A DNA stretch of 64,000 nucleotides from assembly GCA_043813075.1 (NCBI GenBank), contig JBDRLL010000036.1, positions 1-64,000 on the forward strand. Reading direction: 5' to 3'. The notes below the pieces were generated by a model, which saw nothing but the letters and a program-made list of their open reading frames with translations, did not search any database and was not told the origin of the DNA. This document shows, piece after piece, positions 703-5,712 of the stretch. The position numbers were made by a program, and so were the translations under genes. Positions within the stretch are counted from its first letter, which is position 1, and each line of letters begins with the position of its first letter. The stretch is from Candidatus Altiarchaeota archaeon (GTDB taxonomy: Archaea; Altiarchaeota; Altiarchaeia; IMC4; SCGC-AAA252-I15).

Positions 703-1827
703 ATGAGGAGATTTATTATATTACTCTCTTTTTTGTTTAGTTTATCATCTATTGTTTTTGCTGAGAGTGTCTCTAATTCCTATGGAAGTCCTGGTGATGC
801 ATATCTTGAGTATAGCATCTCAGGTGCCGATTTTTCAGGAGACGATGATGGCCCGCCAAACCATGAGGGCGTATACACTGGCGGCACGGTAATATTACAG
901 GGGTTGATGAGTGTGGATCGCACAGGTGGAACTGTCTCCTATGTCACTATGGATGCTAGGCTCGGCGACGATTTTGCCCACTGGCCTAAGGAAGGTATGG
1001 ACAACAAAGTTGAAGGCAATAAGGTTGAGATGCCTTTCTTACTGTCATATACCCCAAACTCCGAAGAAAAATCCATATCCGGTCAGGTTAAGCTTGAGGT
1101 TTGCGGCGGAGTGTGCGGAGTATACAATGTTAAAATCAATATAATTATGCCTGACAAAGGAGAAAAAGAACAGCTGTTGAAGGATATAACTAAGGACATA
1201 GATGATAAAATGACGGTAACATTTATTCGAGGAGATATTAGCCTATCAAGAAATAGGGAAAGTAGTTGGATACCTCTGGACAAAAATACTCCTGCTGAAT
1301 TGAAAGTATATGATATTATAAAAACCGGAGAAAATAGTCGGGCTTTAATAAAGTATCCTGATGGAGCGATTTTCAAAGTTAAATCAGATACTCATCTAAC
1401 AATACTCCCAGACGGCTTACAATTAAGTGGGGGCGACGTTTGGATAAACATAGTGAAACAGGATAAAGTATTTAAGGTAATAACAGACCCAGGATATGGT
1501 GGAGTTTTAGGCACACAATTTATCGCCAGTCAAAAAACAAACGGAGATGCTGAATATAAATTGATTGATGGAAAAATATCCGTGACAATCAATAAAACCT
1601 TGGAGCAGATAACGTTAAATCCAGGAGAGATGATAAGCGTCCAAGCCAACGTCGAATACCAAAAAACCGGGTTTGATGTAAAAGATGAAATAAAAAAGAT
1701 TAACCAAGAGAACGAAGAAGATGAACAAATACTCTCACAATCAAAAAAGAACATGTGTTTTTGCATCCCAGCACTGCCAATGATACTAACCCTACTCGGA
1801 GCAGGAATAACAAAGCAACTAATCTAG
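703..1827 (+). CDS. secreted FecR-domain protein with C-terminal membrane anchor
   Basis: Signal peptide; FecR-like segment (DIIKTGENSRALIKYPDG...GVLGTQF...LNPGEM); C-terminal CFCIP plus hydrophobic helix. Confidence 0.7.
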   Translation: MRRFIILLSFLFSLSSIVFAESVSNSYGSPGDAYLEYSISGADFSGDDDGPPNHEGVYTGGTVILQGLMSVDRTGGTVSYVTMDARLGDDFAHWPKEGMDNKVEGNKVEMPFLLSYTPNSEEKSISGQVKLEVCGGVCGVYNVKINIIMPDKGEKEQLLKDITKDIDDKMTVTFIRGDISLSRNRESSWIPLDKNTPAELKVYDIIKTGENSRALIKYPDGAIFKVKSDTHLTILPDGLQLSGGDVWINIVKQDKVFKVITDPGYGGVLGTQFIASQKTNGDAEYKLIDGKISVTINKTLEQITLNPGEMISVQANVEYQKTGFDVKDEIKKINQENEEDEQILSQSKKNMCFCIPALPMILTLLGAGITKQLI

Positions 1828-1843
1828 TTACAAAAAGTAATCT

Positions 1844-2079
1844 TGCCGAAGGCGTGACTTGAACACGCGACTTCCAGATAACTCAGCACAAGCTTTTACC
1901 GTCCCATTGGTCGGGTAAAACCTTGACCCAAATTGTGTTATCCTGAAGCTCCTAGCCGTGGTGGTATCCACGCCACAAAGCCATCGAGTCCGTTAGGACG
2001 AAGATGGCTTCTTTGATGAATCTTTAATAAAGATTCTGCTTATGAGTCTGGCGCTCTAACCAATCTGAGCTACTTCGGC
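1844..2079 (-). tRNA. tRNA-Met(CAT), elongator type, with 161-nt intron (1880-2040)
   Basis: Acceptor stem GCCGAAG/CTTCGGC, anticodon arm CCAGA-CT-CAT-A^A-TCTGG, T-loop GTTCAAGT; BHB central helix CTCA/TGAG; G1-C72 argues against initiator. Confidence 0.92.
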
Positions 2080-2159
2080 ATCCGAACGAATGTGGGGATG
2101 GCGAAGCTCAGAAACCGTAGGTTTCTGTGTGCTTCGGCCGAAGCCTGGTTGGCTTCGGC
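2080..2159. repeat. 80-bp palindrome-rich segment in the tRNA-Met leader
   Basis: Hairpins CAGAAACC-GTA-GGTTTCTG and GCCGAAGCC-TGGTT-GGCTTCGGC; extra copies of the first 7 nt of the tRNA. Confidence 0.6.
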
Positions 2160-2194
2160 GTTTTTGAGTGTTTTTATTATGTTTTTCGTGTTTT

Positions 2195-2929
2195 TTAATC
2201 TGCTGGTTTTTTGACTGGTGTTCGGGTGACAGTCCATAGTACTTGTCCGTCGGGTTTTTCGGTTTTTCGGGCTGTTATCTCGTGTTTTTCGTCTAGTTCC
2301 CCGGTTTGGCGTAGTTCTTCCTGTGTTTTGCTTATCCGGTCGTAGAATATGACTTGGAGGGATAGGTAGTCTCGTGGTCTCTTGTCTGTCCGTGTTTTCT
2401 CCGCCTCCGTGAGTTTCTCAGGTATCTGGACGGCGTATCCTGCGGCCGCGAGGTGTGTTGCTGCGGTGGCTATGCATGCTGGGAAGTAGCCTCCTGAGAG
2501 GGTTATTTCGCCTCCTGGGGCGACCCTCTTCCGTATTTCACGTACTATGGTCCGGTATGGGTCTGCCGTGTCTCTGACGTATTTGACGCCGTCTTTGCGT
2601 TGTAGGAGGGGGTGTGTTTTCCTGGATCTGCGGCTGTGGGAGTCTATCACCGGGTCCCCTGCATCCAGGAATCGGGTGGTTTCGCCCGCTATTTCGCCTG
2701 CCAGCTCGTCGACTTCACCCACCCTCGTCCGGTAGGCTTCCCTTGCTTCCGGCGGCGTCAGGTCCACTAGTTCTTTCACCAGCTGGGCGTCTGACTTCTC
2801 CCGCTGGCGGGATTGGTCTAGGATTCTCTGGACACGGACCTGGTCCGGAACCCGGTTGGTGTCTTCCATGATCTCGTAGAGGTTGACTGAGAGCGGCCCG
2901 AAGTCTCTGGAGCCTGCGTCTATCCGCAC
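2195..2929 (-). CDS. hypothetical protein, possible remote cysteine hydrolase (isochorismatase-like)
   Basis: 244-aa ORF; ITLSGGYFPACIATAATHLAAAGYAVQI resembles the catalytic-Cys region of the family. Confidence 0.45.
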   Translation of the reverse strand: MRIDAGSRDFGPLSVNLYEIMEDTNRVPDQVRVQRILDQSRQREKSDAQLVKELVDLTPPEAREAYRTRVGEVDELAGEIAGETTRFLDAGDPVIDSHSRRSRKTHPLLQRKDGVKYVRDTADPYRTIVREIRKRVAPGGEITLSGGYFPACIATAATHLAAAGYAVQIPEKLTEAEKTRTDKRPRDYLSLQVIFYDRISKTQEELRQTGELDEKHEITARKTEKPDGQVLWTVTRTPVKKPAD

Positions 2930-3003
2930 TAGAGCCCTCTGCCTAAGGTTTTGCTTGATTTTAACCGCCTCCGGGTTTTATTATAGCCAGTCCTTTAATT
3001 AAT

Positions 3004-4026
3004 ATGCGTCGCCACCGGTTCATTGTATTGTTTTTTTTCGGCGTACTGATAGTCATGAGCCTTGTTTTGTGGGTCGGATTCTGGGAGGTCCTGCGGGATC
3101 TCGCGTTCATGAACCTCAAGTACTTCATGATACTATTGTGCATCCAGTTTGTTATGATGTTCCTCTGGGCAGTCAAGTGGAGTATCGTGCTGCGGCATAG
3201 TAAGGCTTCTTTCCGCAAGATCCTGCCAGTCTCCTTCGTCGGGTATCTCATCAACAACCTGACGCCCATCTCAATGGCGGGGGGTGAGCCGATTAGAGCC
3301 TACCTGTTGAGTAGGGTGGACGACATCTCCACTGAGGATTCCGCAGCCAGCGTTATAGTCGACTTGTTCCTCGAGGTCTTCCCCCTCCTCGGGCTCGTGC
3401 TCCTAGGCATAGGATTGTCTTTCATGTACAACGTCAGTGTCGGAGTCGCCCTCCTGCTGGGTGTCGCAGGATTGTTCATACTATTCGTGTCCGCAGTCAT
3501 CATGACTCTTTTCGTGAACGAGAGGATTTCCTTGAGGATGATTGAAGTCACCCTAGGCCTTATCGAGAGGATTCCCGTAGGCTTCCTGAGGGACCATGCG
3601 AAGGACGCTAAAACCAGGATAGACGACATAATAGGCAACTTCATGTCCAGCATGAGGAAGACCATGATGGACTGGAGGATAATAACCGTCGGAGTGCTCG
3701 TCTCAACACTCAACCAGATGCTCTGGATATTCCGCATGTACATCATCTTCAACATGATGATGGGTTTGAACCTCCCCTGGGATGTCGTATTGATAGGCAG
3801 GATAACGGTTGCCGCCGCATCCTTCGCCAGCATAATCCCCGGCGGCCTCGGAATCTGGGAGGGCGTCGGAACCTGGGTCTACAGCATGTTCGGGGTCGCA
3901 GCCTCCTCCGCCATGGCCGCGAACCTTGTGGAGAGGCTTTTCAGCTACTGGATAGGCTCGGCCATAGGCTTGGCTGCAGCAGCCTATCTCGGCGTAACAG
4001 AATACATCAAGAGATACTTGGACTAG
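3004..4026 (+). CDS. flippase-like membrane protein (UPF0104 / lysylphosphatidylglycerol synthase TM family)
   Basis: NNLTPISMAGGEPIRAYLL and IPGGLGIWEG motifs; multiple TM helices. Confidence 0.85.
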   Translation: MRRHRFIVLFFFGVLIVMSLVLWVGFWEVLRDLAFMNLKYFMILLCIQFVMMFLWAVKWSIVLRHSKASFRKILPVSFVGYLINNLTPISMAGGEPIRAYLLSRVDDISTEDSAASVIVDLFLEVFPLLGLVLLGIGLSFMYNVSVGVALLLGVAGLFILFVSAVIMTLFVNERISLRMIEVTLGLIERIPVGFLRDHAKDAKTRIDDIIGNFMSSMRKTMMDWRIITVGVLVSTLNQMLWIFRMYIIFNMMMGLNLPWDVVLIGRITVAAASFASIIPGGLGIWEGVGTWVYSMFGVAASSAMAANLVERLFSYWIGSAIGLAAAAYLGVTEYIKRYLD

Positions 4027-4079
4027 GAGGGGGTTATTTTTATTGATTAAACCACATATTATCTATCCTATTTCAAGAC

Positions 4080-4204
4080 CCCGTCTTAGCGTAGTTTGGT
4101 TTAACGCGGCCGCCTGTAGTTTGGTTTAAAGCCCTTTTTCACAGGGTTTTGCGGCTGTATGAGCAGCTAGCGGCAGATCTCCGGTTCAAATCCGGAAGAC
4201 GGGA
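4080..4204 (+). tRNA. tRNA-Tyr(GTA) with 49-nt intron (4120-4168)
   Basis: Acceptor CCCGTCT/AGACGGG (C1-G72, archaeal/eukaryal Tyr identity), anticodon arm GCCGC-CT-GTA-G^A-GCGGC, T-loop GTTCAAAT; BHB helix CTGT/GCAG. Confidence 0.92.
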
Positions 4205-4242
4205 AACACCCTTTTTTACCTGGTTTTCAGTAATATTCTTTC

Positions 4243-4452
4243 ATGAGCGAAGGCAATGGCGGTGGCTCCACCATAATCCAGTTTTCCGCAGGATCAGTGC
4301 TGGCGATAGTCATATCCTACATGGACAACCACTCGATAGTCTGGGCCCTGATACACGGCATAATGGGCTGGCTCTTCGTCCTATACAAGATTGCGGTGGT
4401 CATGGGGTGGGTGGGCGGCATAGACTGGATGGGGATCTACAACTTCCCGTAA
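4243..4452 (+). CDS. small membrane protein
   Basis: 69 aa, two hydrophobic segments (GSVLAIVISY...WALIHGIMGWLFVLY). Confidence 0.6.
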   Translation: MSEGNGGGSTIIQFSAGSVLAIVISYMDNHSIVWALIHGIMGWLFVLYKIAVVMGWVGGIDWMGIYNFP

Positions 4453-5327
4453 CCCGACTTCCCGGAATCAGATAGGCGGACTAGAATCTCCTGCTCCAAC
4501 GCAAGGCACTTGTTCCTCATGCACGGGAGATAGCATCTCTCATACATCTTCAAGCCAGTCCTCGCGTGAGCCAGAGCAGACTCATAATCACCTGCCGCAA
4601 GATAGTCGTCTGCAGCATAACACTGCTGGTTAGCGGCCTCCTCCCAGTACGGGGGGCATCCCCTGTTCTCCACGATCGTCTTGTTCAACGCCTTGTCAAC
4701 GTACTCCACATCCCCCGACGAATTCAACCGCACATAGATGCTGCGCGAGAGCTCGAGGAAAGCCTGAGACAAGACAGGGTCATCAACCGAGAAAGACTTG
4801 TCGAAGAACCGGGCAGCCCAACATGAGTCAGGGCAGATGTCTTCAGTGGGCTCGTAGACGCTATCGTTTGAGACAGCAAGCCAATAGCAGACTGCCATAT
4901 AAGGGACGTCACGCATCACGTCACAGACGCTGGAGTCATTGAAGGCATACGCAATCCGGGAGAGACAAGTATGCCTCAAATCGAAAGAAGAGATGTTCAT
5001 ACAGTATGTGGCGTTGAACTCATTCAGAGCGAACCGCATGTTACAGGAATCCCTCGCACCCCCACCCCCAATCATGGAGCAGAAGCTCCCAGAACCCTCA
5101 TCAACAGCCAAAAGAAGATAACAATTGTCACGGCCAGCGCCAGCAGGATAAGACCCGCAACCACCCCCACCCGGCAGAGAGGATGATGTGGGAGCCATTG
5201 TAGTGGACTGGAGGGTGGAGGATGAAACCACAACCCCCAAAGGCAATGTCGTCGCAGAAGACCCGTCCAAACCACCCAAACACCCTGAAAACACCGAAAA
5301 AACCAGAAACAAACCCACAAAACGCAT
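4437..5327 (-). CDS. Cys-repeat lipoprotein
   Basis: Lipobox FSGC; Ser/Thr linker; repeats of the type C-x-I...RD-x-C-Y-x3-A. Confidence 0.7.
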   Translation of the reverse strand: MRFVGLFLVFSVFSGCLGGLDGSSATTLPLGVVVSSSTLQSTTMAPTSSSLPGGGGCGSYPAGAGRDNCYLLLAVDEGSGSFCSMIGGGGARDSCNMRFALNEFNATYCMNISSFDLRHTCLSRIAYAFNDSSVCDVMRDVPYMAVCYWLAVSNDSVYEPTEDICPDSCWAARFFDKSFSVDDPVLSQAFLELSRSIYVRLNSSGDVEYVDKALNKTIVENRGCPPYWEEAANQQCYAADDYLAAGDYESALAHARTGLKMYERCYLPCMRNKCLALEQEILVRLSDSGKSGYGKL

Positions 5328-5441
5328 AGAAGAATATTAAAACAACCAAAACTAAAAACACGAAAAAACAGGGAAAACACCCCCAGCAAAACCTATTTAA
5401 ACCCTAAAGCAGTATAATAAAAAACCCACAAAATCCCACAC

Positions 5442-5603
5442 GCCCCGGTAGTGTAGCGGACTATCATGCGAGACTGTCGGAAACTTTAATAAAGTTTCAT
5501 CAAAAAGGCCATCCTCGCCCCAAAAGGGCTCGATGACCTAACGATGCAAGCCAGTTAAGTTTGCGGAAATCTCGCGACCCGGATTCGAATTCCGGCCGGG
5601 GCG
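5442..5603 (+). tRNA. tRNA-Asp(GTC) with 89-nt intron (5480-5568)
   Basis: Acceptor GCCCCGG/CCGGGGC with G discriminator, anticodon arm CGAGA-CT-GTC-G^A-TCTCG, T-loop TTCGAAT; BHB helix CTGT/GCGG. Confidence 0.92.
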
Positions 5604-5693
5604 TCGAACCCTAAAATTTCTATTGTTTTAGCTTCTGGAGGATTATTATTTCGGGGGCATGATTTTCATTTGATTTGGGAATTCGAATTCTAG

Positions 5694-5712
5694 TTTTTCC
5701 TTAGCTCCAGAC
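5694..5712 (+). repeat. 19-bp direct repeat, copy 1
   Basis: TTTTTCCTTAGCTCCAGAC, identical to 8216-8234. Confidence 0.9.

Follow-up and report, generated by a model that had tools for sequence, protein, structure and literature searches.

A double-hairpin module shared by tRNA introns, tRNA flanks and other stable-RNA genes in one order of Altiarchaeota

We analysed a 64,000-nucleotide (nt) stretch of the genome of a Candidatus Altiarchaeota archaeon (contig JBDRLL010000036.1, positions 1 to 64,000; the window), in which the introns of a tRNA-Met and a tRNA-Asp gene carry copies of one double-hairpin module of ~57 to 62 nt. Comparison with related genomes showed that the module is dispersed and concentrated at tRNA and other stable-RNA genes, that it is present or absent at orthologous sites, that it is often flanked by duplicated target sequence, and that it can serve as the crossover site of an integrase-bearing element. 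The module is an old repeat specific to one order of Altiarchaeota. We think it probable that it is a non-autonomous mobile repeat, which is retained in anticodon loops through its removal by splicing as a bulge-helix-bulge (BHB) intron. A preliminary description of the window had proposed, as the first of two alternatives, a mobile element with tRNA introns as its safe harbour, and the dispersal, the filled and empty sites, the target duplications and the DNA-like constraint on the stems support this proposal. Its view of the sequence as an intron module holds for both window introns but was too narrow, as 18 of 85 copies were intronic.

The source genome (G000; 1.8 Mb in 41 contigs, 52% G+C, an 89%-complete assembly) was compared with related genomes, which bear the other G numbers. 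All compared genomes are incomplete assemblies, and failure to find the module in one of them does not mean its absence. Positions 1700 to 5700 of the window were contained in two DNA metagenome runs only, with shares of 0.16 and 0.06.

Three tRNA genes were found in the window by ARAGORN once introns were allowed, namely tRNA-Met, tRNA-Tyr and a third gene labelled Ser(GGA) (Table 1). Standard tRNA finding misses such genes: ARAGORN in default mode found none of the three, and Rfam gave no match at the gathering score in the whole window. At E ≤ 1, the only Rfam match between positions 1800 and 5700 was tRNA-Tyr. The label Ser(GGA) was wrong, and the gene was identified as tRNA-Asp(GTC) both by hand and by its orthologues. 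The latter were recovered through the exon sequences at 16 loci of relatives, two of which (L066 and L069) ARAGORN itself names Asp-GTC, and the intronless orthologues align exon to exon with the window gene.

The module copies of the Met and Asp introns lie in the sense orientation, 4 nt and 0 nt past the 5' splice site, respectively. They were found where the preliminary description had placed them, and the MAFFT alignment gave 47 identities in 61 columns, the same value as its estimate by hand. In each copy, an A-rich linker joins hairpin 1, whose base is AAC/GTT, to hairpin 2, which contains a TCTTCG...CTCGAT internal loop; the loop reads TTC/TC in Met, and TTC/TC or CTC/TC between the two window copies. 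The reported compensatory changes were present in both stems, a T-A pair being replaced by A-T in hairpin 1 and GTCC/GGAC by GCCC/GGGC in hairpin 2, as was the C-A mismatch in the outer stem of the Asp copy (GCCATC/GATGAC). A BLAST search against the genome connected the two copies only weakly (30 nt, 87%, E 0.27), and their homology is secured by the wider family rather than by this pair. The module matched no Rfam family, either at the gathering score in the whole window or at E ≤ 1 between positions 1800 and 5700. A K-turn or C/D box identity of hairpin 2 was considered and rejected by eye, the sense strand having no tandem G·A. The antisense strand of hairpin 2 has a GA/GAA loop.

Both introns can be drawn by hand as canonical BHB introns, and their splicing is predicted. 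The Met intron has helix H = CUCA/UGAG, helix h' = GCA/UGC, and bulges UA↓A and UU↓A. The Asp intron has CGAGA/TCTCG, H = CUGU/GCGG, h' = AAACUUUAA/UUAAGUUU, and bulges CG↓G and AA↓A. In the latter, GCGG of the intron 3' end pairs with CUGU of the anticodon loop, the adjoining AA forms the 3' bulge together with A38, and the preceding TTAAGTTT forms helix h' with the 5' arm of hairpin 1. In the minimum-free-energy fold of the Asp precursor, the 5' arm was likewise paired with the intron 3' end, with hairpin 1 not formed and no clean BHB. When the duplex energy between the 5' arm and the intron 3' end was calculated, shuffled sequences often equalled the observed value, in part because the intron bounds from ARAGORN are approximate. 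The pairing is therefore argued by eye, because the duplex-energy test was not clean.

The structure of the module was evaluated on 85 aligned copies, with 500 shuffles and slid partners as controls. The stem cells were paired in 95.2% of cases, as opposed to 22 to 45% with slid partners, and double changes occurred at 17 of the 18 pairs, in 228 cells. None of the 500 shuffles matched the observed pairing and double-change values, and the covariation noticed between two copies thus holds in the larger alignment. The best-conserved letters were both sides of the hairpin 2 internal loop, where each position was conserved in 71 to 84 of the 85 copies for TCTTCG and in 68 to 80 for CTCGAT, together with the AA/TT at the base of hairpin 1. 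The stems contained 10 G·U pairs and 64 other mismatches in 1342 cells, whereas in 76 tRNAs of these genomes the acceptor and T stems contained 39 G·U pairs and 1 other mismatch in 912 cells; the module count comes from a model-fitted alignment whose seed held no G·U, so that the model penalises G·U somewhat. A structure selected as RNA should tolerate G·U and a palindrome kept at the DNA level should not, which indicates that the module stems are constrained like DNA. Template-switch correction of quasi-palindromes is one DNA-level way of keeping stems paired.

We searched for further copies using a covariance model (R1) built from six module copies of the source genome. The seed included both window copies, whose R1 scores are consequently circular, while those of the remaining family copies are not. 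The source genome yielded 14 matches at E < 1. Among 41 relatives, the module was found in 29 at E ≤ 1e-3, with ~115 matches and up to 17 copies per genome (G008 and G019). Across 61 genomes of the phylum at E ≤ 1e-4, it was found in 28, every one belonging to a single order of which 49 genomes were searched, and in none of the 12 genomes of two other Altiarchaeota families. This order is probably not that of Ca. Altiarchaeum. The hairpin 2 pattern occurred at 62 loci of viral contigs, none of which was a full module at E < 1e-3; two weak matches had E values of 0.003 and 0.007.

ARAGORN placed 34 tRNAs in the source genome and called 21 of them with introns, many of 80 to 170 nt. Twelve of the 14 module matches were at these tRNA genes, all of them in sense. 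Six were intronic (Met, Asp, Glu, Arg-GCG, Arg-CCT and a tRNA called SeC, the selenocysteine label, which by hand is probably Arg-TCG), four stood directly against the tRNA 3' end (Ala, Thr, Gly and Ser), and two were upstream, 45 nt before tRNA-Met and 98 nt before tRNA-Thr. In the wider census, the flanks of 85 copies were examined over 300 to 1500 nt with tRNAs placed by ARAGORN. Eighteen copies lay inside an intron, 12 immediately followed a tRNA on its 3' side and 11 preceded a tRNA by no more than 150 nt on its 5' side, every one of these in sense; four were tRNA-adjacent in antisense, and 40 were in loci where ARAGORN finds no tRNA. The intronic copies occur at the 5' end of canonical introns in at least eight tRNA types. 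In all 17 distinct module-bearing introns, the module began −2 to +5 nt from the intron start in the sense orientation. All 17 introns occupied the canonical anticodon-loop position by ARAGORN, and none of those callable was non-canonical; most non-canonical introns cannot be called by this program, and copies inside them may escape the count.

The model matches were not confined to tRNA introns, a point that the preliminary description had raised as a question. The trailer copies begin within ~3 nt of the tRNA 3' end, and in three genera the start of the module coincides with the 3' end of the signal recognition particle (SRP) RNA (L048 in G006, L052 in G011 and L104 in G015), with stem sequences that differ among all three. 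At protein genes, copies were found after the stop codon of a chaperonin gene, after that of a metallo-beta-lactamase-fold gene, and adjoining purE. In RNase P RNA genes, the module lies in antisense between the P1/P2 5' strand and CR-I, where P3 is expected (Table 1), and these genes scored only 39 to 49 bits against the Rfam RNaseP_arch model. The same flank was recognised by similarity in G019 and G015 (L047). G015 additionally has a canonical RNase P RNA of 91 bits on a different contig. Tandem pairs of modules, 110 to 160 nt apart and in one orientation, were present in G001:C187:1931-2104 (L098), G019:C51, G008:C7, G027:C2, G030:C23 and G004:C27. In the first of these, tRNA-Cys is followed by a module and then, after 39 nt, by 21 nt repeated from the tRNA 3' end and by the second module.

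Signs of insertion were found by aligning the 90 nt upstream of each of 83 copies with the 200 nt downstream. A direct repeat with a score of at least 26 and a length of 12 to 89 nt flanked 25 of the 83 copies, as opposed to 7 of 83 at the same score in the best of 20 shuffles. No more than 4 nt separate the end of the upstream repeat from the module start, and the downstream repeat begins 4 to 140 nt past hairpin 2. The repeated segments were 5' parts of tRNAs with 9 to 16 nt of upstream DNA, tRNA 3' ends and the 3' end of purE. Such a duplication could arise from staggered breaks whose spacing varies, or from a small circle that bears a copy of the target and integrates in the Campbell manner. 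Filled and empty sites within one genus were also observed. Upstream of tRNA-Lys, G019 is 109 nt longer than G008, and the difference consists of the module, 14 nt and a second copy of the ~40-nt target. The module after the chaperonin gene is present in G019 and missing in G015 and G017. The upstream flank of the purE copy is rearranged in relatives and gave no clean empty site. At position 37/38 of tRNA-Asp, 16 loci (14 after removal of two duplicates) included seven intronless ones, among them that of G001 from the same genus; the remainder carried the module, the module without hairpin 2 (G033 and G038), a second element type (G011) or an unrelated intron (G025).

The module was also found at points of recombination. 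Between G008 (L092/L091) and G019 (L078/L075), which belong to one genus, the left flanks of two module copies were exchanged, with the breakpoint at or in hairpin 1. One of the exchanged flanks is the 3' end of a metallo-beta-lactamase-fold gene, which may encode RNase Z; G013 (L060) likewise has a module next to the end of a tRNase Z-type gene. A complete integrase-bearing locus was observed at G019:C43, in the order tRNA-Lys, module M1, a Phage_integrase gene, two open reading frames (ORFs) that matched no Pfam family, a 20-nt repeat of the tRNA 3' end, module M2, and host flank. At the corresponding empty site of G008, whose flank matches that past M2 of G019, the single module agrees with M1 at all five informative sites up to TCTTCG and then with M2, indicating that the 3.3-kb element recombined inside hairpin 2. 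Among the module copies whose flanks were examined, G019:C43 was the only locus with an integrase gene beside a tRNA and a repeat of the tRNA end at the far border. Phage_integrase genes were additionally observed within ~1 kb of tRNA-Asp in G012, G015, G027 and G040 (Table 1), suggesting that tRNA-Asp is an integration hot spot in the order. The module was not found at the intronless tRNA-Asp loci next to an integrase.

Table 1. Positions of the tRNA genes and module copies of the window and of related features in the compared genomes (window positions unless a genome and contig are given).
Feature	Position	Strand	Basis
tRNA-Met(CAT), 161-nt intron at 37/38 (1880-2040)	1843..2080	-	ARAGORN with introns; splice sites and BHB by hand
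Module copy, Met intron	1980..2036	-	R1 match 1978-2038, 78.3 bits (seed)
Met hairpin 1	2036-2018	-	
Met linker ATCAAAGAA	2017-2009	-	
Met hairpin 2	2008-1980	-	
tRNA-Tyr(GTA), 49-nt intron without module	4080..4204	+	ARAGORN; sole window tRNA matched by the Rfam tRNA model, at a loose threshold
tRNA-Asp(GTC), 89-nt intron at 37/38 (5480-5568)	5441..5605	+	ARAGORN, hand and orthologues
Module copy, Asp intron	5480..5537	+	R1 match 5478-5539, 75.4 bits (seed)
Asp hairpin 1	5480-5498	+	
Asp linker ATCAAAAAG	5499-5507	+	
Asp hairpin 2	5508-5537	+	
Asp intron 3' end	5555..5568	+	Read by hand: TTAAGTTT 5555-5562, GCGG 5563-5566, AA 5567-5568
RNase P RNA with antisense module	G008:C36:5331-5645		L085, L151
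RNase P RNA with antisense module	G022:C152:4146-4448		L046, L152
RNase P RNA with antisense module	G002:C1:97691-97930		L061, L149
Phage_integrase within ~1 kb of tRNA-Asp	G012:C4:3008-3873; G015:C65:18157-19551; G027:C12:289-1479; G040:C150:522-1685		
Second element type, introns	G000 C6:2939-3135; C6:84490-84643; C6:87750-87910; C20:74252-74410; C39:21637-21795		
Second element type, trailers after tRNA 3' ends	G000 C24:12227-12281; C20:74415-74462; C39:21598-21640; C10:99285-99308; C32:8278-8301		

If the module is a non-autonomous mobile repeat, a recombinase supplied in trans may recognise its DNA in folded or palindromic form, and a tyrosine integrase is the sole candidate seen for this recombinase. 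A copy landing in an anticodon loop would form helix h' of a BHB from the 5' arm of hairpin 1 and the complementary intron 3' end; the splicing endonuclease would then remove the copy, which would thereby survive. The Met and Asp introns would be resident copies, vertically inherited and not made for the tRNA, and the stems would be kept paired at the DNA level, by selection on both strands or by template-switch correction, and not through an RNA function. The intronic copies have complementary ends, as splicing demands, and by eye the extra-intronic copies have no terminal inverted repeats. At the end of some composite inserts lies the second element type in antisense.

Several observations weigh against this explanation. 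No clear flanking repeat was detected for 58 of the 83 copies, and a variable duplication of 12 to 89 nt fits no standard transposase, nor IS200/IS605. The same duplications would result if a small circle integrated by the Campbell route. The crossover inside the module was seen at one locus, G019:C43. The sense bias (41 of 45 tRNA-adjacent copies, and 12 of 12 in the source genome) and the abutment of the module on RNA processing sites would also fit a role at the RNA level. Paralogues within a genome had a median identity of ~0.5 and a maximum of 0.77 to 0.85, with no near-identical pairs and therefore no visible recent burst; by their sequences, they are old. Orthologous copies of G008 and G019 were 0.92 to 1.0 identical. 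Pairing of 95% among paralogues that are ~50% identical could mean selection on each copy, and the alignment that gave this value and the G·U count is biased toward structure and against G·U. None of the enzyme families searched (Y1_Tnp, Cas1, RVT_1 and integrase) tracked the module. Cas1 was found in 6 of 28 module-bearing and 9 of 33 module-free genomes. Of the 41 relatives, 25 had a Phage_integrase match, 3 of 61 phylum genomes had a homologue of the G019 integrase, and neither the source genome nor G008 matched Phage_integrase. The source assembly also gave no match to Y1_Tnp, Cas1 or RVT_1, and a Xer-type recombinase was likewise undetected in it.

A more specific proposal is that the module is an attC-like folded-DNA recombination site with its crossover at TCTTCG, inserted with target duplication at tRNA genes by a tyrosine recombinase. 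Insertion in an anticodon loop would then give a new BHB intron, since one strand of the splice helix would come from the 5' arm of hairpin 1. The attC site of integrons is a folded single-strand recombination site of tyrosine recombinases. Like it, hairpin 2 is built of two stems, outer and inner, which are separated by a small asymmetric unpaired spacer and closed by a terminal loop that varies in length; its sequence is conserved only at the stem base and spacer, and one crossover maps inside it; the AAC/GTT base of hairpin 1 is a further likeness. In contrast to attC, the module has two hairpins, its copies are at tRNA genes, and they have flanking duplications. No cassette arrays or IntI-type integrase were seen in the loci read, although no IntI-specific search was made. 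We regard this proposal as tentative and rather unlikely.

A function at the RNA level, which the preliminary description gave as its second alternative in the form of an excised intron RNA, has to be weighed against insertion. The module could be a small RNA or a cis element of precursors whose 5' end is freed by the splicing endonuclease or RNase Z, and tRNA-linked C/D box RNAs of other archaea and of plants are released by tRNA-processing enzymes. The constant position near the intron start (17 of 17), the start of trailer copies ~3 nt or less from the tRNA 3' end, the abutted SRP RNA 3' end at three loci, the prevalent sense orientation (41 of 45), the sequence conservation of the hairpin 2 internal loop and the pairing kept among diverged paralogues are all consistent with such a function. 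However, G·U pairs are no commoner than other mismatches in the module stems, unlike in tRNA stems, antisense copies lie inside RNase P RNA and next to purE, and orthologous tRNAs of close relatives, such as the tRNA-Asp of G001, have no module. The target duplications and the filled and empty sites indicate insertion, no Rfam family other than tRNA-Tyr was matched between positions 1800 and 5700 at E ≤ 1, and no C/D-type box pair was found by eye. We therefore consider an RNA function unlikely. The repeats reach 9 to 16 nt upstream of the tRNA, which led us to reject a transcript-end model, in which segments beginning at position +1 of the tRNA are ligated as RNA or reverse-transcribed; a further reason is the rarity of reverse transcriptase genes (RVT_1 in 2 of 28 module-bearing and 5 of 33 module-free genomes). 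In another explanation, the modules are not themselves mobile but were left behind by integrative plasmids or viruses that target tRNAs and have a tyrosine integrase, whose att region brings a tRNA-end copy and the module; integration and internal deletion would leave a tRNA end, module, remnant and tRNA end, and introns would have been carried in from attP copies, as PMC3293823 proposes for Caldiarchaeum. The tRNA-Lys locus of G019 has precisely such a layout, with an intact integrase and a crossover in the module, a tRNA-Cys 3'-end copy lies between the two modules of G001:C187, integrase genes stand by tRNA-Asp in four genomes, and partial tRNA copies flank many modules. Nevertheless, a scan of 45 neighbouring ORFs gave a single integrase, integrase-adjacent intronless tRNA-Asp loci yielded no module, and none of the 62 pattern matches in viral contigs is a full module. 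The duplicated targets are many and unrelated, including ends of protein genes, which a site-specific attP cannot explain, and G000 and G008 have many modules with no detectable integrase. We consider such an origin improbable.

The preliminary description had likened the module to repetitive extragenic palindromic (REP) sequences and to IS200/IS605 ends, which would be mobilised by an HUH Y1 transposase (the REP-associated tyrosine transposase RAYT, or TnpA). Features that would suit this idea are the imperfect pairing of the hairpins, their conserved asymmetric internal loop, the marked orientation bias and the presence of Y1_Tnp genes in 18 of 61 phylum genomes. The comparison did not support the idea, however: Y1_Tnp was found in 8 of 28 genomes with the module and in 10 of 33 without it, G046 has 17 Y1 matches and no module, and G000, G001, G008 and G011 have modules, each of the first three many copies, and no Y1. 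The long flanking duplications at 25 of 83 copies and the ~40-nt filled and empty case also speak against it, as REP and IS200/IS605 insertion to our knowledge leaves no long target duplication. No Y1 gene was seen flanked by a module, though no systematic search was made. This origin is very unlikely. As regards dispersed repeats in general, the module is short, non-coding, hairpin-forming, dispersed, lineage-specific and modular, with no internal transposase, like REP and bacterial interspersed mosaic elements (BIMEs), BOX elements and transposable elements of the miniature inverted-repeat kind (MITEs). In contrast to MITE-like repeats, its extra-intronic copies showed no terminal inverted repeats by eye, the duplication is variable (12 to 89 nt) and not fixed and short, 12 of 14 matches in the source genome are at tRNA genes, and copies reside in introns whose splicing is predicted. 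Furthermore, no autonomous transposase relative was found, either among the 45 neighbouring ORFs, which included no transposase, or in the genome searches for Y1_Tnp, Cas1 and RVT_1. A census of MITEs gives the highest archaeal MITE density for Ca. Altiarchaeum hamiconexum (PMC11602168).

Transposed tRNA introns are known from the Thermoproteales, in which homologous introns occur in different tRNAs (Fujishima et al. 2010, Mol Biol Evol 27:2233, as reported in PMC4090602). As far as these accounts go, the two cases share homologous intron sequence in different tRNAs of one genome, the BHB type, and presence that varies among close relatives. They differ in that the present case is in another phylum, all 17 introns are canonical, and only the 5' module of the intron is shared; compared with the description in that review, the module also occurs outside introns with target duplications. 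In Caldiarchaeum subterraneum, a tRNA gene is disrupted by an integrative element, and intron gain through a tRNA copy borne by the element was proposed (Sugahara et al. 2012, PMC3293823). The likeness lies in partial tRNA copies as direct repeats around an insert with a recombinase gene beside the tRNA. However, that system comprises one 1.8-kb element at one tRNA-Thr, whereas the module has ~60 nt and occurs at many tRNAs in many genomes, mostly without a recombinase gene, and the crossover at its sole complete locus lies in the module downstream of the tRNA. In full-text literature, supplements not included, we found no paper linking an archaeal dispersed hairpin repeat to tRNA introns of Altiarchaeota.

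A second element type was found in introns and trailers like the module (Table 1). It starts with GAACC, followed by a T-rich/A-rich hairpin, CGTTCACGG and an A-rich run. In the source genome, it fills the introns of tRNA-Asn, tRNA-Ala, a second Asp-like tRNA, tRNA-Cys and tRNA-Leu-TAG, and antisense copies occur in the tails of some module inserts. The two element types together were found at 21 of the 34 tRNA genes, with second-type matches accepted to E 0.5, some of them weak. In addition, AGGATAACACAA after the module is common to the long introns of tRNA-Met (1880-1979, minus strand) and tRNA-Arg-CCT (G000:C11:51509-51620), and TGTGGCG(T)GG comes after hairpin 2 not only in the Met intron but also in the tRNA-Ala and tRNA-Gly trailers.

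The arrival of archaeal tRNA introns is an open question: the mechanism of intron spread in the Thermoproteales is called unknown in the review PMC4090602, and a 2026 preprint on Asgard tRNA introns did not find the route of arrival and leaves it open. The module gives a concrete lead on intron gain. As one element occurs as an intron, as a trailer or leader, within RNase P RNA, and beside a duplicated target where it was recently inserted, the question becomes testable, in particular as to which enzyme recognises hairpin 2 and whether insertion in an anticodon loop yields a spliceable intron. Copies of the module also mark rearrangement breakpoints between related genomes. If the attC-like proposal were true, the module would provide the first concrete molecular route of tRNA intron gain in archaea.

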